DNA from: Candidatus Latescibacterota bacterium
GTDB lineage: Bacteria; Latescibacterota; UBA2968; UBA8231
Reading direction: 5' to 3'
Assembly (NCBI GenBank): GCA_965206595.1
Contig: OZ242214.1
Coordinates: 6,176,001-6,240,000, forward strand
Length of the DNA: 64,000 nucleotides
Shown: positions 6,387 to 20,503 of the stretch, one piece after another
How the letters are laid out: each line of letters starts with the position of its first letter
Position numbering within the stretch: the first letter of the stretch is position 1
Position numbers and translations under genes: made by a program
Notes under the pieces: model-generated
What the model was told of the DNA's origin: nothing
What the model saw: only the letters and a program-made list of their open reading frames with translations
The model's database searches: none

Positions 6387-7400
6387 TCAGATCCAGCCGC
6401 TGCTTTCCCTGCGCACCAGGGAAGCCATGGCGTCGAGCCAGCGGGGATGACTGTTGAGACAGGGCACGAGGTGCAGGTGGCCGCCACCGGCAGCGCGGAA
6501 AATCTCGTCCCCCTCCCGGCCGAGCTCGTCCAGGGTCTCCAGGCAGTCGGCGGTGAATCCCGGCGCCACGACCACGAGACGTCCGCCGCCCTGGCGCCCT
6601 AGCTGCGCCAGCACATCCTCGGTGTAGGGCTGAAGCCACTCCTCCCTGCCGAAACGGGACTGGAACCCGAGGTGCCAGCGTTCGCGGTTCAGGCCGAGGG
6701 CCTCGGCGAGCAGGCCGGCGGTCGCCTCGCACTGGCGGCGATAGGGATCCCCTTCGTCGACGTAGCGTCTGGGAATGCCGTGGAAGGTGATGAGGAAGCG
6801 CTCCGGCGGATCCTCCAGGCGGAAGAGGGAGTTTTCGACGGCGGCCCTGAGACTGTCGATGTAGCCGCAGTCGTCGAAATAGGGCGGAACGAAGCGCAGC
6901 GCCGGCATGGTGCGCCTGCGGTCGAACAGGAACGCTCCGCTGCGTCCGAAAGCAGATCTGGTGACGGCGTCGTAGACCGATCCGGTGGTTGACGCCGAGA
7001 AGTGGGGGAACATCGGCAATACCACGATACGGTCGATCTCCTCCGCTTCCATCTGCCGCAGGGCCCGCTCGATGCTCGGTTCGCCGTAGCGCATCCCCAG
7101 AACGACCCGGTAGCGGTCTCCGAGACGCTGCTGCAGTTCCTTCTCCTGGGCGCGGGAGTGAAGCAGAAGCGGAGAGCCCCGGTCGGTCCAGACGTTTCGA
7201 TAGAGCGCCGCGGATCGCGCCGGCCGCCGCGAGAGGACGAGAAGGTACAGAACCGGCAGCCATTTCCACCGCGGCAGGTCGATGACGCGAGGGTCGGACA
7301 GGAACTGCTTCAGGTACGGCCGCAAGGCGGTTGCGCTCGGCGCGGCCGGAGTGCCCAGCTGGGCGACGAGAACGCCGACCGGTGGGGAAGCGCTACTCAT
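6387..7400 (-). CDS. hemH: Ferrochelatase
   Basis: LGTP, YLKQFLSDPRVI, MRYGEPSI, FHGIP, FQSRFGREEWLQPY, FTADCLETLDE, VPCLN. ATG at 7400 (alternative TTG 7418). Confidence 0.96.
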   Translation of the reverse strand: MSSASPPVGVLVAQLGTPAAPSATALRPYLKQFLSDPRVIDLPRWKWLPVLYLLVLSRRPARSAALYRNVWTDRGSPLLLHSRAQEKELQQRLGDRYRVVLGMRYGEPSIERALRQMEAEEIDRIVVLPMFPHFSASTTGSVYDAVTRSAFGRSGAFLFDRRRTMPALRFVPPYFDDCGYIDSLRAAVENSLFRLEDPPERFLITFHGIPRRYVDEGDPYRRQCEATAGLLAEALGLNRERWHLGFQSRFGREEWLQPYTEDVLAQLGRQGGGRLVVVAPGFTADCLETLDELGREGDEIFRAAGGGHLHLVPCLNSHPRWLDAMASLVRRESSGWI

Positions 7401-7543
7401 GGGTGAGCTGCTCGGCAAGTCGGGCTAAAACAGCGTTGATCCATGGGGTGCGGTGGGGTACTTTGCGCGCGGCCGCCTGGTAGAGCGCTGCCGAGGGCAG
7501 CAGTTGGCAATTTCCGTAATCTAACAAGGGAGCACTGACAATC

Positions 7544-8269
7544 ATGCGCTGCATTTTCGTCGGCATCGAGTACGCGGGCAAATCCACGCTCATCAATCTG
7601 CTCAAGGATTACTATGCGAAGCGCCGCCAGCCCGTCCACATGGACGATCACTTCACCCTTCCCGATTCGACACTTAGTCCCGCATCCCGCGAGCAGATGG
7701 TGAACTTTCCCGACGACGTCAAGGAGCGCATGCAGCGGATGCAGATCCAGTACCACGTAGAGGTGATCCGCAACTACGCCCACGTGCTGATAAGCGGCTG
7801 GCACATCGAGGAGAGCATCTACTCGGAGTTTTACGGCAACGACCCCGGCAGTTCCTACTATCCCAATTTCTGGCACGCCAACAAGCGCACCCACGAGGCC
7901 CTGGTCCACGAAGCCCGCGTCCCGGACATCGTTCTGGTCCACGTAACCGCCAGCGACGACGCCATTAGGGAGCGCATGGCCTCCGATCCCCATGAGTACC
8001 AGATCATCAGGGAGGGGGACATCGGCGCTTTGAAACGCCGCTTCGTGGAGGAATGCGATCAGTCGCTGCTGGCCAAGAGGGGCAGGATCGACCTCGATAC
8101 CACGGACAGGACACCCCGGCAATCCCTCGACGAGCTGCTGCTGAAATCCGAGCCGGTGATCACTTCGGGAGAGCTCGCCATCCGGACCATGGCGGTACCC
8201 GACGGCGACTACGAGGTCGCTTACGAGAACGGCGTGCGCAAAACCGTTCCGGTGGTCGGCGATAGTTGA
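7544..8269 (+). CDS. P-loop kinase, thymidylate/nucleoside-monophosphate kinase-like
   Basis: N-terminal FVGIEYAGKSTL (dTMP kinase-type P-loop), LVHVTAS..IRERM, LDTT; GGGAG RBS upstream. Confidence 0.6.
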   Translation: MRCIFVGIEYAGKSTLINLLKDYYAKRRQPVHMDDHFTLPDSTLSPASREQMVNFPDDVKERMQRMQIQYHVEVIRNYAHVLISGWHIEESIYSEFYGNDPGSSYYPNFWHANKRTHEALVHEARVPDIVLVHVTASDDAIRERMASDPHEYQIIREGDIGALKRRFVEECDQSLLAKRGRIDLDTTDRTPRQSLDELLLKSEPVITSGELAIRTMAVPDGDYEVAYENGVRKTVPVVGDS

Positions 8270-8961: not shown

Positions 8962-9494
8962 ATCCCGGTTGGCAGGTCGGGTCCCTGTTTCCCCTTTCAG
9001 GGTCGAATGCAATCGGTGCTCGACATGCTCCACCATGCACTAGAATTTGCGCTGAACCGGCTTGCCGGTTGCAAGGGGAAGGGAACATCCCCTGGTGAGG
9101 GGACGGGGACGGCTTGGAGCCGGCAAACCAATAGCAACAGGGGGAGGAAACCCGCCCGGATCCTGGGGAAAATCCTGTTGACGGCACCAAATATTCGGGG
9201 TGGAAGCGTTTAGCCACTCAACCGAAAAAACCAGCGATTCTTTCCCCCAGATCAGCCGCCTGGGAGAAGAACGCGACTGCTCGCGCCAGTATCTCCCAAA
9301 CCATGTCATTTACCGAATATCAACCATATGATGTTACCGGCCGATCATAGTGGCCGAGAATCGCGATTGTCAGTATGATTGTACGCATTCTTCTGAACGA
9401 TCGGCCGCAACAGGCAGGTCTCAACCGGATTGAAAATCGTGAACGCCTTGCCTCCGCGATCTCTCACTTCTTCCTCCAGAAGGAGAACTACCTG

Positions 9495-12400
9495 ATGGAC
9501 ACGATTGCTGCAATATTCCTTGAAATCGCTCGGAAGGCAAAATCATTGATCTGCCGTCCAAATCTGCTCGCCGCAGAGAAAATCATCCCATCCGCGACGG
9601 AAAGGCGCCGGAAAATGCAAATTGCTGACAACAGAATAAACGACGCGACAACGCTCAGCGTCCGTGGCGGATGCGCCGCCATAGCCACCTTTATCCTTCT
9701 GCTCGGTACGGCCTCCTCCTGGGCGCAGACCGACTCTCGGCCGTCTTTCGGCGACAGGGCCATTTCCGACCAGGTCTGGACAGCAGACTCGGCGATCGAG
9801 CCGCTGCAGCTGCCGGAGGCTTCGGATGGCGACGGCGAGCTTTCCTATGAGCTGACCCCTCAGCCGCCTCCAGGACTGTCGTTCAACACCGCGTCGCGGA
9901 CCCTGTCCGGCACACCGACCGCCGCGGGGCGCACTACATATACCTACACCGCTACCGATGGCGACGGCGAAGAAGATTCCCGCAGTTTCACCATCGTTAT
10001 CGTCGAAGACCTGATGCCGACACTCGAAGAGGTGATGGATCGGACCTGGACCCAGGATTCGGAGATCCTGTTGCCGCTTCCGGTGGCCGAAAGCGGCAAC
10101 GGCGAGGTGACCTATGAGTTGACTCCCGAACCACCACCGGGTATGACCTTCGAATTCCGAATGGTGGAGCCCGATCCTGCCCACCATATCGCCATGGAGA
10201 AGACGTGGGTTCTGATCGGCACGCCGACCGTGCCCATGGAGGGCACCGAATACACTTATTCGGCGACGGATGCCGACGGTGACATGACTCTGATTTCCTT
10301 CGGAATCACGGTGATTGAGGACTTGATGCCGGAATTCGTCGAGGATACCGGCGCCCGGACCTCGGTCGAGGGCTTCCCGGTGGAACTGGAGTTGCCGGGG
10401 GCCATGGGCGGCAACGGCGAACTCACCTATTCGCTGTCTCCGGGGTTGCCCGGAGGGCTGGATTTCGATGCGGCCTCCCGGACGATTTCGGGCACCCCGG
10501 AGGCTCCCCAGGCCCTGGTCGAGTACACATTGACGGCCACCGACGCCGACGCCGACGCGGCGGATCTGGTTTTCTCTCTGATGGTGGAAGAAGACGTAAA
10601 TCCCGAGTTCACCGAAGAGGTGCAGAATCAGACCTGGATCCAGGACTCGGAGATTGCGGTGCTGGATTTGCCGGGTGCGGAAGGGGGTAACGGCCCCTTT
10701 GCCTATTCGATATCTCCTGAGCTTCCGACAGGGCTGACCTTTTGGGCGGGCGACCAGACGATTTTGGGCACGCCCACGGAGGTCCAGGAACGGACCATCT
10801 TTGTGTACCGGGCGGTTGACGCCGACGGCGACGGGGTGGAACTGACTTTCTCACTGGAGGTGGTCGAGGACCTTATGCCCACAATCGCCGAAGGTGTGGG
10901 GGGGCAGACCTGGACCGAAGATTTCACGGTGGAGACGCTGGTTCTACCTGAAGGTTCGGGCGGAAACGGCGAGTTGACCTACGAGCTCTCCCCGGAACTG
11001 GCACAGGGCCTGGTTTTCGATCCGGAGACGCGGACGATTTCGGGAACGCCGGTGGTTCCAAAGGAACGGACCCGCTACGTGTACCGGGCGGTTGACGTCG
11101 ACGGCGACGCCGCGGAGTTGACCTTCTCGGTGATGGTGCTGAAGGATCTGATGCCGAGCTTCCCCGAGGCCGTGCAGAACCAGACCTGGATCCAGGACTC
11201 GGAGATTGCGCCGCTGGATCTGCCGGGTGCAGAAAGTGGCAACGGGGCCATCTCCTATTCGATAATTCCCGATCTTCCCGCGGGGCTGACCTTTCAAGCG
11301 GGCGACCAGACGGTGTTGGGAACGCCGACGGAAGTCCGGGAACGCACCCTTTACGTGTACCGGGCAGTTGACGCCGACGGGGACGCGGTGGAAATGACCT
11401 TCTCGTTGGTGGTGTTGGAAGACTTGATGCCGAGCTTTGCAGAGAGCGTGGAGGCTCAGATCTGGACGGAGGATTCGCTGATCGAGCCGCTGCAGTTGCC
11501 GGCGGCCGGAGGGGGCAACGGCGCCCTGTTCTATTCCCTGTCTCCTGAGCTTCCTGCGGAGATGTCATTCGATGCGAAGACACGGACGATTTCAGGCAGG
11601 CCAACGGATCCCCATGATGAAACCGAGTACACACTGACGGCAACCGACGGCGACGGCGACCCGGTGGGGTTGGCCTTCTCCCTGACGGTGAGAAAGGATC
11701 TGATGCCGAGCTTTTCGGAAACGGTGAGGAATCAGACCTGGACGCAGGATTCGGCGGTTGAGCTGGAGTTGCCGGCGGCCGAGGGTGGCAACATCGAGTT
11801 GACCGGTGAGTTGAGATATACAATAACGCCGGCGTTGCCGGCGGGGGTGACGTTTGACGAGGGGTCGCTGACGATATCGGGCACCCCGGAGAATCCGCAG
11901 GATCTGACGCGCTACGTGTTCCGGGCGATCGACGCGGACGGGGACGTGGTGGGGCTCGCGTTTACCGTGAAGGTGTTGGAGGACCTGATGCCGAGCTTCA
12001 CCGAGAGCGTGGAGGGTCAGGTCTGGACGCAGGATTCGCCGGTTGCGCTGGCGCTTCCGGTGGGGGAGGGTGGCAACGGCGTCGACGGCGTCGAGGGTCT
12101 TCTGAGGTATACGCTGTCACCGGATCTTCCGGACGGTCTGATGTTCGAGGGTTCCCGTCAGCGCATCCGGGGCACGCCGACGGTGCCGATGGGTGAGACG
12201 ACGTTCACCTACACGGCCACGGACAACGACGGCGACGCGGTGGAGCTGACCTTCTCGCTGACGGTGCTGGAAGACCTGACGTCGAGCTTCTCGCAAGAGG
12301 TCAAGAATCAGATCTGGACGCAAGATTCGGAGGTCGAGCCGATTGTGCTGCCGGAGGCAGAGGACGGCAACCGTGAGTTAGCCTCCATGAGGTATACGGT

Positions 12401-15400
12401 TATCCCGGCGTTGCCGGCGGGGGTGACGTTTGACGAGGGGTCGCTGACGATATCGGGCACCCCGGAGAATCCGCAGGATCTGACGCGCTACGTGTTCCGG
12501 GCGATCGACGCGGACGGGGACGTGGTGGGGCTCGCGTTTACCGTGAAGGTGTTGGAGGACCTGATGCCGAGCTTCACCGAGAGCGTGGAGGGTCAGGTCT
12601 GGACGCAGGATTCGCCGGTTGCGCTGGCGCTTCCGGTGGGGGAGGGTGGCAACGGCGTCGACGGCGTCGACGGCGTCGAGGGTCTTCTGAGGTATACGCT
12701 GTCACCGGATCTTCCGGACGGTCTGATGTTCGAGGGTTCCCGTCAGCGCATCCGGGGCACGCCGACGGTGCCGATGGGTGAGACGACGTTCACCTACACG
12801 GCCACGGACAACGACGGCGACGCGGTGGAGCTGACCTTCTCGCTGACGGTGCTGGAAGACCTGACGTCGAGCTTCTCGCAAGAGGTCAAGAATCAGATCT
12901 GGACGCAAGATTCGGAGGTCGAGCCGATTGTGCTGCCGGAGGCAGAGGACGGCAACCGTGAGTTAGCCTCCATGAGGTATACGGTTATCCCGGCGTTGCC
13001 GGCGGGGGTGACGTTTGACGAGGGGTCGCTGACGATATCGGGCACCCCGGAGAATCCGCAGGATCTGACGCGCTACGTGTTCCGGGCGATCGACGCGGAC
13101 GGGGACGTGGTGGGGCTCGCGTTTACCGTGAAGGTGCTGGAGGACCTGATGCCGAGCTTCACCGAGAGCGTGGAGGGTCAGGTCTGGACGCAGGATTCGC
13201 CGGTTGCGCTGGCGCTTCCGGTGGGGGAGGGTGGCAACGGCGTCGACGGCGTCGAGGGTCTTCTGAGGTATACGCTGTCACCGGATCTTCCGGACGGTCT
13301 GATGTTCGAGGGTTCCCGTCAGCGCATCCGGGGCACGCCGACGGTGCCGATGGGTGAGACGACGTTCACCTACACGGCCACGGACAACGACGGCGACGCG
13401 GTGGAGCTGACCTTCTCGCTGACGGTGCTGGAAGACCTGACGTCGAGCTTCTCGCAAGAGGTCAAGAATCAGATCTGGACGCAAGATTCGGAGGTCGAGC
13501 CGATTGTGCTGCCGGAGGCAGAGGACGGCAACCGTGAGTTAGCCTCCATGAGGTATACGGTTATCCCGGCGTTGCCGGCGGGGGTGACGTTTGACGAGGG
13601 GTCGCTGACGATATCGGGCACCCCGGAGAATCCGCAGGATCTGACGCGCTACGTGTTCCGGGCGATCGACGCGGACGGGGACGTGGTGGGGCTCGCGTTT
13701 ACCGTGAAGGTGCTGGAGGACCTGATGCCGAGCTTCACCGAGAGCGTGGAGGGTCAGGTCTGGACGCAGGATTCGCCGGTTGCGCTGGCGCTTCCGGTGG
13801 GGGAGGGTGGCAACGGCGTCGACGGCGTCGAGGGTCTTCTGAGGTATACGCTGTCACCGGATCTTCCGGACGGTCTGATGTTCGAGGGTTCCCGTCAGCG
13901 CATCCGGGGCACGCCGACGGTGCCGATGGGTGAGACGACGTTCACCTACACGGCCACGGACAACGACGGCGACGCGGTGGAGCTGACCTTCTCGCTGACG
14001 GTGCTGGAAGACCTGACGTCGAGCTTCTCGCAAGAGGTCAAGAATCAGATCTGGACGCAAGATTCGGAGGTCGAGCCGATTGTGCTGCCGGAGGCAGAGG
14101 ACGGCAACCGTGAGTTAGCCTCCATGAGGTATACGGTTATCCCGGCGTTGCCGGCGGGGGTGACGTTTGACGAGGGGTCGCTGACGATATCGGGCACCCC
14201 GGAGAATCCGCAGGATCTGACGCGCTACGTGTTCCGGGCGATCGACGCGGACGGGGACGTGGTGGGGCTCGCGTTTACCGTGAAGGTGCTGGAGGACCTG
14301 ATGCCGAGCTTCACCGAGAGCGTGGAGGGTCAGGTCTGGACGCAGGATTCGCCGGTTGCGCTGGCGCTTCCGGTGGGGGAGGGTGGCAACGGCGTCGACG
14401 GCGTCGAGGGTCTTCTGAGGTATACGCTGTCACCGGATCTTCCGGACGGTCTGATGTTCGAGGGTTCCCGTCAGCGCATCCGGGGCACGCCGACGGTGCC
14501 GATGGGTGAGACGACGTTCACCTACACGGCCACGGACAACGACGGCGACGCGGTGGAGCTGACCTTCTCGCTGACGGTGCTGGAAGACCTGACGTCGAGC
14601 TTCTCGCAAGAGGTCAAGAATCAGATCTGGACGCAAGATTCGGAGATCGAGCCGATTGCGTTGCCGCAGGCTTCGGGTGGCAACGTGGAGTTGACCGGTG
14701 AGTTGAGGTATACGCTGACCCCCGAGCTGCCAGCAGGGGTGACGCTGAACGAGGGGACGATATCAGGCACCCCGACGGTGGCTCAGGAGCTGACCCGTTA
14801 TGTGTACCGGGCGATTGACGCGGACGGGGACGTGGCCGGGGTGGCCTTCTGGGTGGTGGTTGCGCAGGATCTGACGCCGGAGTTCACCGAAAGCGTGGAG
14901 GACCGGAACTACATCACCGATGTTGCGATTGCCGCATGGGTGCTGCCGAAAGCCACCAGTGGCAACGGCCTCCTTGTTTACACGCTGACCCCCGATTTAC
15001 CGGAGGGCCTGTCGTTCGACCCGCCGTCGCGAAAGATAACGGGAACCCCGACGGTAGCTCAGGATCGCAAGGAATACACCTATACGGCGACGGATGCCGA
15101 CGGGGACACAGGTTCGTTGACCTTCGGGCTGACCATTACACTGGCGAAGCCCACGGCGTTGAATTTACTGCCTTCTCTAGATTTGCTGGCCGGCGGCAAT
15201 GCGGTCAGTGTCAATGTAGACGGGCTGTTCAGTGGTCAGGAACTGGCCTACCAGTTCGAGTCGAGCGACACCGAGGTCGCCTCGGTGCAGCCCGACGGGG
15301 CTTCTGCCGAGGTGACGCCGAAACGTGAAGGCTCGGCCATGGTGACAGTGACGGCGACCAATTCGAGCGGATCGGCGGACATTCAGTTTTCCGTCACGGT

Positions 15401-16877
15401 CAGCACCGCCCCGGAAGAGCGCGCGGTGCTCAATGATGTCCTCGCCGGTCTGGCGCGGGCACGGCTGAGCAGTCTGACCGGGGTGATCGGACGTCGCTTC
15501 GAGGCCGGAGCGGCCTCACCCATGAGCGCTTCCCAGGCCTCTAGGTACGAGGCTCGCCGAGGGGCTCAGTGGTTCGATCTGGACGCGGTCCTGGGTGGCC
15601 CCGGGGATTCCCATCGGAAGCCGACCTCCATGCTGTGGGGCCGCACCTTTGCGGTTGCCCTCGGCAGCGGAGAGAGTGGGAAGGGCGGAGAGTGGACCGG
15701 GGCCATGAGTGACCAGTCCATGTCCGAGCCGTCATCCAAGATGCGCTGGAGCCTGTGGGGTGCCGGAGATCAGCAGGCTTTCAGTGGCGGTGAGTCCAAC
15801 TCGTACGAGGGCGATCTGCGCTCGGTGTACCTGGGCCTGGACGGCGAATTCGGAAAGAGCTGGCTGGGCGGCAGTCGCTGGCTGACCGGGGTCTCGGTGG
15901 CCAGCAGCAGCGGAGAGGCGGAGTACGATTTCAGCGATTCCGACATGAGTGGCAGCGGTATCTTCAAGACGAGTCTGACGAGCGTCTATCCTTACATGCG
16001 AGGTGCACTGGCTTCGGGTCTGGAGCTGTGGTCCATCGCCGGGGTAGGCTCGGGTGAGGTAACAAACGAACGCGCCCATCTGGGCGGCACGACGGACGAG
16101 GGAGACCTCACCATGGGGCTGTTGATGTTGGGCATGCGCAAACCATTGACTGGCATGGAGACTCGACTGACCCTGTTGGGAGATGCTGCGCAGGAGTGGC
16201 TTTCCGCCAACGGCACCGGTTCCCTGTCCTACAGTCCGGTGTCGTCGGTACAGCGCGCTCGTATGGGTGTGGAGCTGGCGCGCCAAATGGCAAGCGGTCT
16301 GGAACCGTTTGGCGAGTTGAGCGGCCGTTACGACGGCGGTGACGGGGAGGCAGGATCCGGCGTCGAGGTGGCGGCCGGTTCGCGCTACCGCAGCGCCCGC
16401 CTCGACATTGAGGCCCGGGGACGCATGCTGGCCATGCACTCGGCCTCGGGCTATAAGGAAACCGGCTTCGGAGCGCGCATTCGGGTGCGGTCGCACGCGG
16501 ATGGCACGGGGATGTCGATGTCGCTGTCGCCGCGCTGGGGCCGGGCCGAAGGTAGCGGCGCCTTGTGGAGGGATCAGGCACTGCAGCTGAAGAGCGGGGT
16601 GGCTGGCGCTTCCAGACTTCGAGCTCCGACGCTGGGGGGCGGGATCGGTTACGGTCTCGCTGCAGCGCGGGGTGTAGTGACCCCGGTGCTGGAGATGGAC
16701 CGCAACGACTATGGCCGCACGCGGTTGCGGCTGGCGCTGGGTTACACCCCCACGCCGGCATTGATGCGAGCCTTGGACATGCACGGTGCGATGCTGGACC
16801 TCTGCATCAGCCGGGCAGAAGGCCACGGTTCTGACCCGGATCACGAGATCCGTATGAGGGGCCGGCTGCGGTTGTGA
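9495..16877 (+). CDS. Giant acidic Ig-repeat (He_PIG/cadherin-like) surface protein with a C-terminal autotransporter-like beta-barrel
   Basis: About 19 repeats of ~92-98 aa (PSF..QxWT..LP.A.GGNG...Y.L.P.LP.GL.F....I.GTP....Y.Y.ATDxDGD....F.L.V) plus one further Ig domain. Then a helical linker and an amphipathic barrel (WSLWGAG, YLGLD, SVYPY, LELWSIAGVGSG, RYDGGDGEAGSGVEV). AGGAG RBS precedes ATG 9495; the signal-peptide-like segment follows ATG 9615. Confidence 0.85.
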   Translation: MDTIAAIFLEIARKAKSLICRPNLLAAEKIIPSATERRRKMQIADNRINDATTLSVRGGCAAIATFILLLGTASSWAQTDSRPSFGDRAISDQVWTADSAIEPLQLPEASDGDGELSYELTPQPPPGLSFNTASRTLSGTPTAAGRTTYTYTATDGDGEEDSRSFTIVIVEDLMPTLEEVMDRTWTQDSEILLPLPVAESGNGEVTYELTPEPPPGMTFEFRMVEPDPAHHIAMEKTWVLIGTPTVPMEGTEYTYSATDADGDMTLISFGITVIEDLMPEFVEDTGARTSVEGFPVELELPGAMGGNGELTYSLSPGLPGGLDFDAASRTISGTPEAPQALVEYTLTATDADADAADLVFSLMVEEDVNPEFTEEVQNQTWIQDSEIAVLDLPGAEGGNGPFAYSISPELPTGLTFWAGDQTILGTPTEVQERTIFVYRAVDADGDGVELTFSLEVVEDLMPTIAEGVGGQTWTEDFTVETLVLPEGSGGNGELTYELSPELAQGLVFDPETRTISGTPVVPKERTRYVYRAVDVDGDAAELTFSVMVLKDLMPSFPEAVQNQTWIQDSEIAPLDLPGAESGNGAISYSIIPDLPAGLTFQAGDQTVLGTPTEVRERTLYVYRAVDADGDAVEMTFSLVVLEDLMPSFAESVEAQIWTEDSLIEPLQLPAAGGGNGALFYSLSPELPAEMSFDAKTRTISGRPTDPHDETEYTLTATDGDGDPVGLAFSLTVRKDLMPSFSETVRNQTWTQDSAVELELPAAEGGNIELTGELRYTITPALPAGVTFDEGSLTISGTPENPQDLTRYVFRAIDADGDVVGLAFTVKVLEDLMPSFTESVEGQVWTQDSPVALALPVGEGGNGVDGVEGLLRYTLSPDLPDGLMFEGSRQRIRGTPTVPMGETTFTYTATDNDGDAVELTFSLTVLEDLTSSFSQEVKNQIWTQDSEVEPIVLPEAEDGNRELASMRYTVIPALPAGVTFDEGSLTISGTPENPQDLTRYVFRAIDADGDVVGLAFTVKVLEDLMPSFTESVEGQVWTQDSPVALALPVGEGGNGVDGVDGVEGLLRYTLSPDLPDGLMFEGSRQRIRGTPTVPMGETTFTYTATDNDGDAVELTFSLTVLEDLTSSFSQEVKNQIWTQDSEVEPIVLPEAEDGNRELASMRYTVIPALPAGVTFDEGSLTISGTPENPQDLTRYVFRAIDADGDVVGLAFTVKVLEDLMPSFTESVEGQVWTQDSPVALALPVGEGGNGVDGVEGLLRYTLSPDLPDGLMFEGSRQRIRGTPTVPMGETTFTYTATDNDGDAVELTFSLTVLEDLTSSFSQEVKNQIWTQDSEVEPIVLPEAEDGNRELASMRYTVIPALPAGVTFDEGSLTISGTPENPQDLTRYVFRAIDADGDVVGLAFTVKVLEDLMPSFTESVEGQVWTQDSPVALALPVGEGGNGVDGVEGLLRYTLSPDLPDGLMFEGSRQRIRGTPTVPMGETTFTYTATDNDGDAVELTFSLTVLEDLTSSFSQEVKNQIWTQDSEVEPIVLPEAEDGNRELASMRYTVIPALPAGVTFDEGSLTISGTPENPQDLTRYVFRAIDADGDVVGLAFTVKVLEDLMPSFTESVEGQVWTQDSPVALALPVGEGGNGVDGVEGLLRYTLSPDLPDGLMFEGSRQRIRGTPTVPMGETTFTYTATDNDGDAVELTFSLTVLEDLTSSFSQEVKNQIWTQDSEIEPIALPQASGGNVELTGELRYTLTPELPAGVTLNEGTISGTPTVAQELTRYVYRAIDADGDVAGVAFWVVVAQDLTPEFTESVEDRNYITDVAIAAWVLPKATSGNGLLVYTLTPDLPEGLSFDPPSRKITGTPTVAQDRKEYTYTATDADGDTGSLTFGLTITLAKPTALNLLPSLDLLAGGNAVSVNVDGLFSGQELAYQFESSDTEVASVQPDGASAEVTPKREGSAMVTVTATNSSGSADIQFSVTVSTAPEERAVLNDVLAGLARARLSSLTGVIGRRFEAGAASPMSASQASRYEARRGAQWFDLDAVLGGPGDSHRKPTSMLWGRTFAVALGSGESGKGGEWTGAMSDQSMSEPSSKMRWSLWGAGDQQAFSGGESNSYEGDLRSVYLGLDGEFGKSWLGGSRWLTGVSVASSSGEAEYDFSDSDMSGSGIFKTSLTSVYPYMRGALASGLELWSIAGVGSGEVTNERAHLGGTTDEGDLTMGLLMLGMRKPLTGMETRLTLLGDAAQEWLSANGTGSLSYSPVSSVQRARMGVELARQMASGLEPFGELSGRYDGGDGEAGSGVEVAAGSRYRSARLDIEARGRMLAMHSASGYKETGFGARIRVRSHADGTGMSMSLSPRWGRAEGSGALWRDQALQLKSGVAGASRLRAPTLGGGIGYGLAAARGVVTPVLEMDRNDYGRTRLRLALGYTPTPALMRALDMHGAMLDLCISRAEGHGSDPDHEIRMRGRLRL
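11829..14660 (+). repeat. Intragenic tandem repeat, 576-bp unit x ~4.9, near-identical copies
   Basis: Units start at 11829, 12405, 12990, 13566 and 14142 (periods 576, 585, 576, 576). Copy 2 has an extra 9-bp GGCGTCGAC. Each unit encodes two Ig domains. Confidence 0.97.
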
Positions 16878-16938: not shown

Positions 16939-17083
16939 AGTATGGTTCCCGATCCTCGGTGAACGCCTTCACATGGCTCCAACTTTCCAGGAATGGACCC
17001 ATGCCTAGGTGGCATAACCTGCGGGCCAGGCAACAGGGGCCACCATCGGTTGCCAATCACGCGACCCAGCAAAGGAAGTTCCA

Positions 17084-17554
17084 TTGATCGACCGAGAGCA
17101 CACCCTGTCCCGGCCGCGGGCAACCGAAATTCTCGCCTGCTGCCTGATTTCCCTCGCAGTCGGCGCCGATGCCCGCAGCAGTCGGGTTGCCCAGATTCCC
17201 AACGGAGGGGAAAACGGCTGCGCCAACTGCCACGTTAACTCGTCCGGCGGGGGCGCCCGCAATTCTTTCGGGGAGATGATCGATAATGGCTTCCTTTCCG
17301 AGGCTGGTCTTTCCGGTTCGGTCGTCTGGGGTCCCGAGCTCGCCGGGCTCGACGCCGACAAAGACGGCTTCACCAACGGCGAAGAGCTCGGAGACCCGGA
17401 GGGAACCTGGACCTCCGGCAACGATCCCCCGGGAGACCCGGAAGCGGCAACCAATCCCGCGGATCCGGACAGCCACCCACCGGAACCGGAAACGACTGCA
17501 GTCGCGATGTCGACGTGGGGCCGGATCAAGGGCATCCTGCCGCTTCTTCGTTAG
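17084..17554 (+). CDS. Secreted temptin-like protein with a CxxCH motif and a C-terminal TWGRIK tail
   Basis: Signal-peptide-like N-terminus; IPNG...CANCH..GGGARNSFG...LDADKDGFTNGEELGDPEGTW...SHP; Pro-rich linker; TAVAMSTWGRIKGILPLLR. TTG start with AAAGGAAG upstream. Confidence 0.7.
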   Translation: MIDREHTLSRPRATEILACCLISLAVGADARSSRVAQIPNGGENGCANCHVNSSGGGARNSFGEMIDNGFLSEAGLSGSVVWGPELAGLDADKDGFTNGEELGDPEGTWTSGNDPPGDPEAATNPADPDSHPPEPETTAVAMSTWGRIKGILPLLR

Positions 17555-17775: not shown

Positions 17776-19008
17776 ATGAGCAAGACAATCCTGCTGATCG
17801 GAGCATTCGATACCAAGGGAACGGACTACGATTTCGTCCGCTCCGAGATCACAGGACGGGGGCACTCCGTACTGACGGTGAACTGCGGCGTGCTCGGGAT
17901 CACCGATCTGTTCCCCGTTGATGTCGAGGCCTCCGAGGTCGCCAGCGCCGGGGGTGGCAGCCTCGGGGAGCTGCGGGCAAGCCGGGACCGCGGCGCGGCG
18001 ATGAAGGTCATGACCGCCGGGGCCGGAGTCATCGCCGCCAGACTGCATGCGGAGGGCCGATTCGACGGCGTAATCGGATTGGGAGGGAGCGGCGGAAGCA
18101 CGGTAGTCACCTCGGCAATGCGTGCCCTTCCGCTCGGTGTCCCCAAGCTCTGCGTCTCGACAGTGGCTTCGGGCGACACGTCGGCGTACGTCGGGCTCAA
18201 GGACGTCACCCTGATGCCGTCGGTCGTAGACGTCGCCGGGCTCAACCGCGTCTCGCGGATCATTTACACGCGCGCCGCGGGAGCGATCTGCGGTATGGTC
18301 GAGGCGGAGCCGGAAACAGGAGGAGGCCGCGACAGGCCGGTGGTCGCCGCGTCGATGTTCGGCAACACCACCGAATGCGTCGAAGCGTGCGTCGAGGCGC
18401 TTTCCGACCACGGCTATGAGGTTCTGGTTTTCCACGCCACGGGAACCGGCGGGAAAACGATGGAGGCTCTCGTCGACGAGGAACTGGTCGACGCCGTTCT
18501 CGACATCACGACAACCGAATGGGCTGATACAGTATGCGGCGGGTTTTTCGACGCCGGTGAGGGTCGCCTGTCGGCCCCGGGCCGCCGCGGCATACCGCAC
18601 CTGATCGTGCCCGGATGTGTCGACATGGCCAATTTCCACGGCATCGGGACGGTGCCCCGGCACTACCGGGATGCCGGCCGGACACTGTACGAGTGGAACC
18701 CATCGGTGACCTTGCTGCGCACGAATGTCGAGGAAAACCGGCGCATGGGGGCCGCCTTTGCAGAGAAGGCGAACCAGGCGCAGGGCCCGGTTGCCTTCCT
18801 GCTGCCATTGAAGGGAGTGTCGATCCTGGACGGAGAAGGGCAGCCGTTCTGCGATCGCGAGGCGGATTTCGCCATGTTCGAGGCGATCAGGTCCGGGCTC
18901 AGGGAGGACATCCCCGTTCACGAGATCGATGCAAACATCAACGATCCCGAGTTCTCCGCTCGGGCCGTCGAGCTGATGCTGGAGCTGATAGCGCGGACCC
19001 GGGATTGA
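17776..19008 (+). CDS. Tm-1-like ATP-binding domain protein (UPF0261)
   Basis: IGAFDTKG, DRGAAM, GLGGSGGS, MRALPLGVPKLCVST, MPSVVDVAGLN, SMFGNTT, VFHATGTGG, DITTTE, PGCVDMANF, NINDPEF. Confidence 0.93.
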   Translation: MSKTILLIGAFDTKGTDYDFVRSEITGRGHSVLTVNCGVLGITDLFPVDVEASEVASAGGGSLGELRASRDRGAAMKVMTAGAGVIAARLHAEGRFDGVIGLGGSGGSTVVTSAMRALPLGVPKLCVSTVASGDTSAYVGLKDVTLMPSVVDVAGLNRVSRIIYTRAAGAICGMVEAEPETGGGRDRPVVAASMFGNTTECVEACVEALSDHGYEVLVFHATGTGGKTMEALVDEELVDAVLDITTTEWADTVCGGFFDAGEGRLSAPGRRGIPHLIVPGCVDMANFHGIGTVPRHYRDAGRTLYEWNPSVTLLRTNVEENRRMGAAFAEKANQAQGPVAFLLPLKGVSILDGEGQPFCDREADFAMFEAIRSGLREDIPVHEIDANINDPEFSARAVELMLELIARTRD

Positions 19009-19247
19009 CTGCAGGGTATAGCAGCCGAAACGACAGAAAGGGGCTCGTGCATCCTACACCCTTTCCGGATGCGTTGGATGCCCCAACCCGAGCTGTCGGA
19101 AGCGGCCGGCCGAATCCGGCAGAAATGGTTCCGGACAAGGGGGAATCACACCCCGCCATTTGTCAGCATCTGTATGAAGCGGTGGATTTTCAGGGGGTCG
19201 TCGAATCGGCAACCCGCCTTGAGGATAAGGAGATCGGGAGAGAATCC

Positions 19248-19670
19248 ATGTCCAGAAAACTGACTTTCGTCCAGCCCGAAGATGTCGAGACCCAGATATT
19301 CGACTGGGGCAGGCTTTCGTGGCTGTCCGAGCCGAACGTCACCGCTGCCGAACGCTTTAGTGCCGGCGTCGTCCGGCTCGAGCCCGGCAAGGGGCACGAG
19401 CGCCACAACCATCCGTACAGCGAGGAGATCCTCTACGTGATTTGCGGCACCGGCCTGCAGACGGTCGAGGTGCCCGAAGGCAAGATAGAGGAAGAGATCG
19501 GCCCTGGAACCCTGGTCCACATCCCGACGGCGCTGTACCACTCGACGATCAACAGCGGCGAGGATGCCCTGGAGATGATCGCCATCTACGCCCCCTTCGG
19601 GCCGGAGGCGGAGCTGCGCCGCCTGGATGGAGTGGCACTGGAACCCCCGCGGCGATTGCGACAGGAGTAA
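19248..19670 (+). CDS. Cupin domain protein
   Basis: GKGHERHNHPYSEEILYVICGTG and GTLVHIPTALYHSTIN metal-binding cupin motifs; GGGAG RBS. Confidence 0.9.
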   Translation: MSRKLTFVQPEDVETQIFDWGRLSWLSEPNVTAAERFSAGVVRLEPGKGHERHNHPYSEEILYVICGTGLQTVEVPEGKIEEEIGPGTLVHIPTALYHSTINSGEDALEMIAIYAPFGPEAELRRLDGVALEPPRRLRQE

Positions 19671-19675
19671 ATGCA

Positions 19676-20503
19676 ATGGCTTTCACGAGAGATGAAGTTC
19701 TGGCGCGCCTGCGAAAGCTGATCGATCAGGGGACGCCGATCCTCGGTGCGGGAGCCGGCACCGGAATCAGCGCCAAGTTCGAAGAGGCAGGTGGCGTCGA
19801 CCTGATCATCATCTACAACTCCGGCCGCTTTCGCATGGCAGGCCGCGGTTCCCTAGCTGGCCTGATGCCGTACGGCGACGCCAACGCCATCGTCATGGAT
19901 ATGGCAGGAGAGGTGCTTACGATCGTCGAGGACACTCCGGTGCTTGCCGGAGTCTGCGGCACCGATCCGTTTCGCCGCATGGAGGTGTTCCTGAAACAGG
20001 TCGAGGAGGTCGGTTTCTCGGGGGTGCAGAATTTCCCGACGGTGGGGCTGTTCGATGGCATGATCCGCCGGAACCTCGAGGAGACCAACATGGGGTACGG
20101 CCTCGAGGTCGAGATGATCCGCCTGGCATCAGAGATGGGGATGCTGACCACGCCGTACGCCTTTGACCCCGGCGAGGGTGCGCGGATGGCCGCGGCCGGG
20201 GCCGACATCGTCGTCGCTCACATGGGACTGACCACCAGTGGTTCGATCGGGGCGGAGACCTCGCTGAGCCTGGAGGAATCGGCAGAGCGGGTGCAGGCGA
20301 TATGCGAAGCCGCGCGGGAAGTGAATTCCGAGGTCATTGTCCTCTGCCATGGCGGACCGATCGCGATGCCGGCCGACGCCGAATACGTCCTCCGCAACAC
20401 CGACGGAGTCAACGGTTTTTACGGCGCCTCCAGCATGGAGCGGCTGCCGGTGGAAACCGCCATGGTCGAGCACATCCGCAAATACAAGCAGATCGAATTC
20501 TGA
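19676..20503 (+). CDS. TIM-barrel signal-transduction / PEP-hydrolase-family protein (Tm-1 C-terminal domain homologue)
   Basis: GAGAGTGISAKFEEAGGVDLIIIYNSGRFRMAGRGSLAGLMPYGDAN, GVCGTDPFR, GVQNFPTVG, HMGLT, LCHGGPI, FYGASSMERLP; AGGAG RBS. Confidence 0.95.
   Translation: MAFTRDEVLARLRKLIDQGTPILGAGAGTGISAKFEEAGGVDLIIIYNSGRFRMAGRGSLAGLMPYGDANAIVMDMAGEVLTIVEDTPVLAGVCGTDPFRRMEVFLKQVEEVGFSGVQNFPTVGLFDGMIRRNLEETNMGYGLEVEMIRLASEMGMLTTPYAFDPGEGARMAAAGADIVVAHMGLTTSGSIGAETSLSLEESAERVQAICEAAREVNSEVIVLCHGGPIAMPADAEYVLRNTDGVNGFYGASSMERLPVETAMVEHIRKYKQIEF

Follow-up and report, generated by a model that had tools for sequence, protein, structure and literature searches.

A temptin-domain protein of Candidatus Latescibacterota as a probable small exported c-type cytochrome

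Temptin has been described as part of a pheromone complex and of the shell matrix, without assigned chemistry. In the literature, a calcium motif of the DSDXD type is named for temptin (PMC10075465). The other systems closest to the protein described here are c-type cytochromes. Exported CxxCH proteins receive their heme from Ccm/Ccs systems, with the motif His as proximal ligand (PMC5526843), and in cytochrome f, the N-terminal alpha-amino group is the axial (sixth) ligand (PMC6616624). Cyc2 is defined by AXPXFAR[Q/K][T/Y] and PXL, motifs that precede and follow CXXCH, respectively (10.1101/228056). Published Cyc2/Cyt572 models predict one His ligand only (PMC13741234), EPR of the Cyc2/Cyt572 type indicates two axial ligands (PMC13692758), and the sequenced N-terminus of Cyt572 starts with Y-P (PMC13741234).

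We analyzed a temptin-domain gene in a 64-kb stretch of Candidatus Latescibacterota DNA (the window, meaning this whole stretch). Its product, which contains a temptin domain, is probably a small exported c-type cytochrome with one heme that belongs to an undescribed type and works as an electron relay. The features referred to in the following are:

17073..17078, + strand: Shine-Dalgarno-like AGGAAG in the sequence, 5 nt upstream of the TTG start
17084..17554, + strand: temptin-domain gene, 156 aa, one clean ORF with a TTG start
17084..17173, + strand: predicted Sec-type signal peptide, residues 1-30, its hydrophobic core read from the sequence
17174..17176, + strand: Arg31, predicted mature N-terminus, the alpha-amine being a candidate sixth heme ligand
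17195..17206, + strand: IPNG motif, common to eukaryotic temptins (P 98%, N 94%, G 94% in 340 homologues)
17219..17233, + strand: CANCH, c-type heme attachment motif (Cys46, Cys49, His50; C 99%, C 99%, H 99% in 340 homologues)
17246..17272, + strand: GGGARNSFG segment, common to eukaryotic temptins and similar to the heme module in cytochrome-porins encoded beside homologues
17351..17398, + strand: DxDxDG..NG.E loop with LGDP, DADKDGFTNGEELGDP, Ca2+ site predicted from the motif
17450..17458, + strand: T123-N124-P125, by alignment the counterpart of eukaryotic T/S-H-P-G, without the His
17495..17551, + strand: C-terminal W..K tail (TAV...TWG.IK type), which the original prediction had missed
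6387..7418, - strand: ferrochelatase gene (Pfam PF00762, 344 bits)

The ORF at 17084-17554 has GC contents of 0.66/0.56/0.74 at codon positions 1/2/3, and a promoter/terminator scan revealed no signal above chance. Between the signal peptide and the short tail lies a domain of about 105 residues. The original prediction had assigned it to the temptins and named a profile match as a check. Residues 30-125 are covered by Pfam Temptin_C (PF24784) at profile positions 3-96 of 98 (51.3 bits, cut-off 27; E = 1.7e-13), and a protein of Mytilus edulis with the name Temptin gave a 53% match over 66 aa in BLASTP (E = 3e-16, a single comparison), which bears out the homology. NCBIfam held no model above cut-off, either for the query or for three tail-bearing homologues. 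Like other Temptin_C proteins, such as Aplysia temptin and lophotrochozoan temptin-monooxygenase fusions, the query comprises a signal peptide, the N-terminal register, IPNG, the conserved His, GGG.RN.FG, a Trp, DxDxDG..NG.ELGDP, and another Trp. Unlike eukaryotic temptins, it has CxxCH instead of G-V-G-H, lacks the LC..D/DPxC disulfide, and has Asn in place of the second His; in addition, the bacterial form carries Arg at +1 and +4, where eukaryotic temptins have aromatic residues, and a bacterial tail that probably serves in sorting. His50 aligns with the GVGH His of the M. edulis protein, so that the conserved His does fall inside CxxCH exactly at 17219-17233, and the animal disulfide cysteines, rightly described as missing, are replaced by A87 and G107. 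Without these cysteines, the query is not an animal temptin in the strict sense. One earlier detail has to be corrected: S130-H131-P132 had been read as the animal SHPG, but the alignment puts T123-N124-P125 there, where every eukaryote-type row (100%) has His and most bacteria have Asn, and the conservation of H131 is as low as 17%.

The calcium loop, predicted to be kept, is present in the query and reads D90-A-D92-K-D94-G, in agreement with the DSDXD-type motif of Temptin_C. Its 12-residue spacing, with Glu101 at position 12, is of the EF-hand type. Residues D90, D92, D94, N98, G99, E101, and D104 are invariant in an alignment of 111 sequences, and the motif suggests that the loop binds calcium.

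Homologues were collected by a word search (145 near-length matches, represented by the best 120 of 145, and 81 longer ones), by a profile search (3,646 clusters at 50% identity; best 150 of 3,646), and by a GTDB scan that started from the calcium loop (549 places; best 80 of 549 kept as loci); tblastn against plasmids gave no match. The family spreads over Latescibacterota, Ignavibacteriota, Bacteroidota, Verrucomicrobia, and Myxococcota, and the closest relatives of the query among the matches listed in the GTDB scan are from Ca. Latescibacterota (92%, 82%, and 78%). CxxCH lies inside the domain in 335 of 340 distinct proteins, all top-ranked matches of searches seeded with CxxCH sequences, which lower-ranked Cys-less bacterial forms would escape; the five exceptions are four N-terminally truncated or aberrant entries and one eukaryote-type protein. 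By set, the motif is found in 115 of 119 near-length homologues (query left out), in 80 of 81 longer ones, and in 87 of 87 domain-bearing genes of the 80 loci and the window, where 10 further rows without CxxCH are weak secondary matches within the same proteins. As only about 2.4e-4 occurrences per 105 aa are expected from local composition, as opposed to this near-universal presence, CxxCH is not a product of chance, and its conservation among bacterial homologues, proposed earlier as a check, is confirmed. Cysteines are limited to the two of the motif in 310 of 340 domains. Bacterial Temptin_C members are already on record through automatic database labels. The open literature, covered in its main texts and under the spelling 'heme', gave no paper naming temptin and heme together and no statement of the heme c reading, and no description of this CxxCH temptin-domain family was seen in the accessible sections of the literature on T9SS cytochromes, Latescibacterota, and Melioribacter (including PMC7399161).

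Gene neighborhoods add an independent line of evidence. Across the 80 loci, a heme motif or Ccm was found in 40 of 351 ORFs within 2.5 kb, compared to 4 of 372 beyond 5 kb, which served as internal control (Fisher p = 2e-9, a value that overstates independence, the loci being related and 35 of 80 from Ignavibacteriota). Such an ORF lies near the gene in 37 of 80 loci, or in 34 once three zinc-ribbon-like ORFs are dropped. A ccmC(E)F operon is located directly upstream in five loci (L010, L011, L031, L037, and L041, with a multiheme gene intervening in L041), and a cytochrome-porin gene directly downstream in nine. Genes for a Rieske protein, cytochrome b, and a pentaheme cytochrome follow directly downstream in four loci (operon blocks L012 9926-12790, L004 730-3597, L006 6767-9637, and L052 9929-12961), a start overlapping a stop codon in three of them; no cytochrome c1 or f was seen within these blocks. 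Ferrochelatase is syntenic with the temptin-domain gene in 10 of 80 related loci and is divergently oriented at a distance of 312 bp in L052. A CxxxxCH lipoprotein gene occurs in 13 of 80 loci, mostly in a cassette with genes for YceI (13) and a DUF5777 barrel (15). The gene context gives independent support for a cytochrome role of the family. Taken with the motif and its conservation, it makes a covalent heme on the query domain very likely; the heme binding originally predicted stands as a reading from sequence and context.

In the window itself, the immediate neighbors are a 7.5-kb Ig-repeat gene upstream and UPF0261, cupin, and PEP-hydrolase genes. The window is syntenic with L052 for ferrochelatase, the temptin-domain gene, UPF0261, cupin, a PEP-hydrolase-like gene, an FGGY kinase, and SHMT. 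The Rieske/cytochrome b block of L052 is absent from it, and no Ccm gene was recognized within its 64 kb; these surroundings count against the cytochrome reading.

Several observations on these loci stand on their own. In the four Rieske/cytochrome b operons (L004, L006, L012, and L052), the temptin-domain gene comes first and the pentaheme cytochrome is membrane-anchored. L004 bears the record title Gemmatimonas phototrophica, and its gene order and sequence are near those of the Latescibacterota locus L006; the title may not reflect the lineage. The lipoprotein of the YceI/DUF5777 cassette (L016 7991-9917 and about 12 more loci) has a weak PSCyt1 match.

Secretion, also part of the original prediction, is supported by the signal-peptide pattern. 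Cleavage is predicted after A-D-A (residue 30), and 318 of 324 homologues have A, G, or S at position -1. From the predicted mature N-terminus, a conserved Pro follows 8 residues on and the first Cys 15 residues on; the distance from the Pro of IPNG to the first Cys is 7 residues in 309 of 324. Among 340 homologues, no column shows Met in more than 10% or another His in more than 17%. Based on these patterns, the protein would be exported by Sec and cleaved at A30/R31. The motif, its conservation, and the gene context suggest that a cytochrome c maturation system would then link Cys46 and Cys49 to heme, His50 being the proximal ligand. The freed N-terminal amine might fill the sixth position, as in cytochrome f, or the heme might be five-coordinate. 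Two findings make the amine a candidate, namely that neither Met nor a second His shows conservation and that the distance to the mature N-terminus is fixed, and we slightly favor it as the sixth ligand.

The lack of a conserved side-chain ligand on the distal side could also suit a c-type heme with an open sixth site that acts as a sensor or binder of NO, CO, or O2, or as a small enzyme, and not as an electron relay. Arg34 (94% conserved) and Arg59 (88%) could form a distal pocket in such a protein, and in fusion proteins the domain stands N-terminal to many modules without a redox role (CHRD, Ig, and T9SS CTD). The operons with Rieske/cytochrome b and cytochrome-porin genes argue against this reading, as does the N-terminal register, which is fixed in bacteria and eukaryotes alike. 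Covariation (370 sequences, Neff 277), a method by which invariant ligands cannot be located, pairs residues 33-38 with the heme motif (I38-N48, z = 7.0) and with residues 79-80; this agrees with a packing of the N-terminal segment on the motif, without identifying a ligand, and also speaks against an open site, which we consider unlikely.

For the electron relay that we prefer, cytochrome f offers an analogy only. Both proteins have CxxCH near the processed N-terminus, and homologues of the query are linked to Rieske/cytochrome b genes in four loci. Unlike cytochrome f, the query domain has about 105 aa, consists of short helices and loops, and lacks a transmembrane helix; membership in the cytochrome f (PetA) family was rejected in the absence of any sequence or fold match. 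Class I cytochrome c (PF00034) was rejected as well, with no Met above 10% in any column, a Pfam Cytochrom_C score of 15.1 against a cut-off of 21.3, and no fold match. The AlphaFold2 model (111 sequences; pLDDT 94.3, pTM 0.87) shows four short helices and otherwise loops. With this domain model, Foldseek against the PDB returned no match at E of 10 or less, VIA-align none among 48,161 chains at Z of 2 or more, and BFVD a single match at E = 7.8, while the best match of PDB sequence searches, to cytochrome c'' and confined to the motif, was not significant (E = 0.46). This absence of matches counts against the cytochrome reading and does not by itself make the modeled fold a new one; the domain would add a cytochrome fold without a solved relative. 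Ca2+ in the DxDxDG loop would hold the mostly loop-built fold, and calcium close to heme can shift the redox potential (PMC11791136).

In 332 of 340 proteins, the domain begins no later than residue 60. Behind it, a crude pattern recognized W..K tails in 76 of 339 homologues; the remainder comprise T9SS-like CTDs (62), CHRD ends (32), further types, and 115 without a class. Homologue P0204 passes TIGR04183, and bacterial fusions include glucose/sorbosone dehydrogenase domains. The W..K tail of the query is a probable sorting signal or amphipathic anchor, which would tether or sort the protein to the envelope. There, it could pass single electrons between membrane redox complexes and periplasmic or surface partners, as the neighbors of its homologues suggest; candidate membrane partners are Rieske/cytochrome b in some Latescibacterota, for which it would be a c-type partner, and cytochrome-porins in Ignavibacteria. 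Small cytochromes with type IX secretion tails would be added as well. As a separate observation, the gene directly upstream of the temptin-domain gene in locus L017 (3746-6298) codes for a cytochrome with 16 hemes and a T9SS C-terminal domain.

The cytochrome-porins next to the family (nine loci) are proteins of 370-390 aa with an N-terminal CxxCH and a beta-barrel. They form a fusion family of Ignavibacteriota/Bacteroidota (L033 1036-2145, L027 10655-11782, and 7 more loci) for which neither Pfam nor NCBIfam has a model above cut-off. A low-confidence model (pLDDT 53) gives a multi-stranded barrel that matches porins including OprP. A profile of the temptin N-half (41 positions) found 9 of 9 cytochrome-porins at E of 0.0075 or better and, among 1,009 ORFs that include other CxxCH proteins, nothing else below E = 0.4. 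By hhalign, the temptin N-half and the porin heme module align over 28 columns (probability 95.6, E = 1.3e-8). The porin match becomes weak once the CxxCH columns are taken out (best E = 0.16); porins are the top three, and 4 of 9 are listed at E of 20 or less. In an Atlas search with the N-half, only generic CxxCH clusters came up, none of them above 0.80 and none a Cyc2 cluster. The temptin-domain gene is tandemly duplicated in L014, L027, L034, L036, L045, and L047, and a cytochrome-porin comes next in four of these.

Since the neighboring porins have a Cyc2-type start (A/S-L-P-R-F/Y of the upstream motif) and lack the full motif, which was found in none of 3,890 ORFs of the window and loci, their sequences qualify them as Cyc2-like, not as Cyc2. 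The query was rejected as Cyc2: it lacks AXPXFAR[Q/K][T/Y] and PXL, has 156 aa, and carries no fused barrel of 365 aa or longer, a beta-barrel porin of that size being fused only in the neighboring genes of the nine loci. Cyc2/Cyt572 and the query share a single CxxCH shortly after the signal cleavage site, and the Y-P start reported for Cyt572 recurs in many eukaryotic temptins and in the Myxococcota homologue P0200. In contrast to Cyc2 as described in the literature, the query has no porin, its first Cys at +16, and an added calcium loop. Ligation by the N-terminal amine would be a probable new case of its kind, relevant to the iron oxidase Cyc2, whose sixth ligand it would explain if the wider proposal made below is correct.

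Eukaryote-type domains were retrieved with the eukaryote-type protein P0198, which found 324 proteins of 366-1166 aa (best 120 of 324), a length window that favors fusions and retrieved no stand-alone animal temptins. A eukaryotic name or source is given for 49 of the 120 listed (molluscs, sponge, brachiopod, diatoms, dinoflagellate, and oomycetes), a prokaryotic name for none. In 100 of the 120, the temptin domain sits N-terminal to a copper monooxygenase; other fusions are cytochrome b561 (24), ferric reductase (1), desaturase (1), and DOMON (1). Among 119 parsed eukaryote-type domains, CxxCH occurs in none, the LC..D/DPxC cysteine pair in all 119, and the second His in 118, compared to CxxCH in 307, the cysteine pair in 2, and the second His in 12 of 308 bacterial-type domains. 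The motif His is kept in 96% of the eukaryote-type domains, mostly as G-V-G-H, and Cys occupies the query positions A87 and G107 in 118 of 118 rows. The N-terminal register is the same as in bacteria (8 residues to Pro), with A, G, or S at -1 in 112 of 116. The eukaryotic secretory pathway is not known to have c-type maturation. We infer that loss of both Cys, retention of the His, and gain of a disulfide elsewhere would fit a heme c that left the compartment of its maturation enzymes, and not a structural disulfide.

This pattern also bears on a heme-free reading, in which CxxCH is a disulfide or Zn/Cu site of a calcium-stabilized adhesion or scaffold domain, near the 'glue' role proposed for animal temptin. 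Such a domain would account for the missing cytochrome fold match and the frequent fusions to Ig and surface domains, and the N-terminal amine together with the His could also bind copper. Eukaryotes, however, drop exactly these two Cys yet form disulfides within the same domain, and with the strong enrichment of cytochrome and Ccm neighbors and the likeness to the cytochrome-porin heme module, this makes a heme-free site very unlikely. From the bacterial form, heme or metal binding is predicted for the eukaryotic domain and its monooxygenase/cytochrome b561 fusions.

Eukaryotic temptins fill the same slot as DOMON, the heme b module of CYBDOM and N-terminal domain of DBH, but the two are unrelated in fold, DOMON being a beta-sandwich. 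It has been noted that temptin can take the place of DOMON (PMC2762978), and DOMON domains can carry heme b beside cytochrome b561 (PMC10784544). The DOMON of human DBH lacks heme ligands (PMC4846438), which weakens the slot argument for monooxygenases. We place heme b binding by eukaryotic temptins a little below an even chance. The wider proposal would make the temptin domain an unrecognized heme fold, i.e., a calcium-stabilized cytochrome c with an N-terminal amine ligand and a heme module in common with Cyc2-like porins, which passed from bacteria to eukaryotes and there holds a non-covalent heme b, both Cys being dropped, the His kept, and a second His and a disulfide gained. As a whole, this proposal is tentative and on balance doubtful. 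If it is true, temptins of molluscs, sponges, diatoms, and oomycetes are hemoproteins that pass electrons from cytochrome b561 to copper monooxygenases. The probable heme of the bacterial protein points to heme-binding redox modules as the ancestors of animal and algal temptin domains, which may still act as such.

A quick unrooted tree was built from 83 rows (48 + 35), a sample of the 215 that were non-redundant out of 427. In it, a single branch separates the eukaryote-type rows from the others (SH-aLRT 95), and the query falls inside the bacterial part. When the trait residues were masked, P0200 from Myxococcota, a long branch, joined the eukaryote-type rows (support 96, again unrooted), and Myxococcota also provide the nearest bacterial sequence to eukaryote-type domains among those sampled. 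The suggestion that the query could show the ancestral function of temptins is plausible; the direction of transfer is not given by an unrooted tree. A role in host interaction had also been suggested, and the idea of a host-derived mimic of animal temptin would go along with the high similarity to mollusc proteins and with the adjoining Ig-repeat surface-protein gene. The family is, however, broad, extending over all five phyla named above, the query lies inside the bacterial part of the tree (unrooted), the neighbors of the family are respiratory and cytochrome genes, and the Ig-repeat gene is missing from most syntenic loci. We reject host mimicry as extremely improbable, and the suggested host interaction is left without support.

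Further observations concern the surroundings of the gene in the window. The Ig-repeat gene (9375-16877, +) is a 2,500-aa ORF that encodes 18 He_PIG Ig-like repeats; it contains long tandem repeats that are nearly identical, and its C-terminus is barrel-like, resembling that of an autotransporter. Its length varies (2,433 aa in L001 and 2,228 aa in L003), and it is fragmented beside a transposase-like ORF in L002. A 241-aa ORF (7544-8269, +) has a P-loop-like start and homologues without a Pfam match, and it is syntenic with ferrochelatase in several Latescibacterota loci. Downstream of the temptin-domain gene, UPF0261, cupin, and PEP-hydrolase-like genes (17776-20503, +) form a conserved block; an FGGY kinase (-), SHMT, and a SelA-like PLP protein come next.
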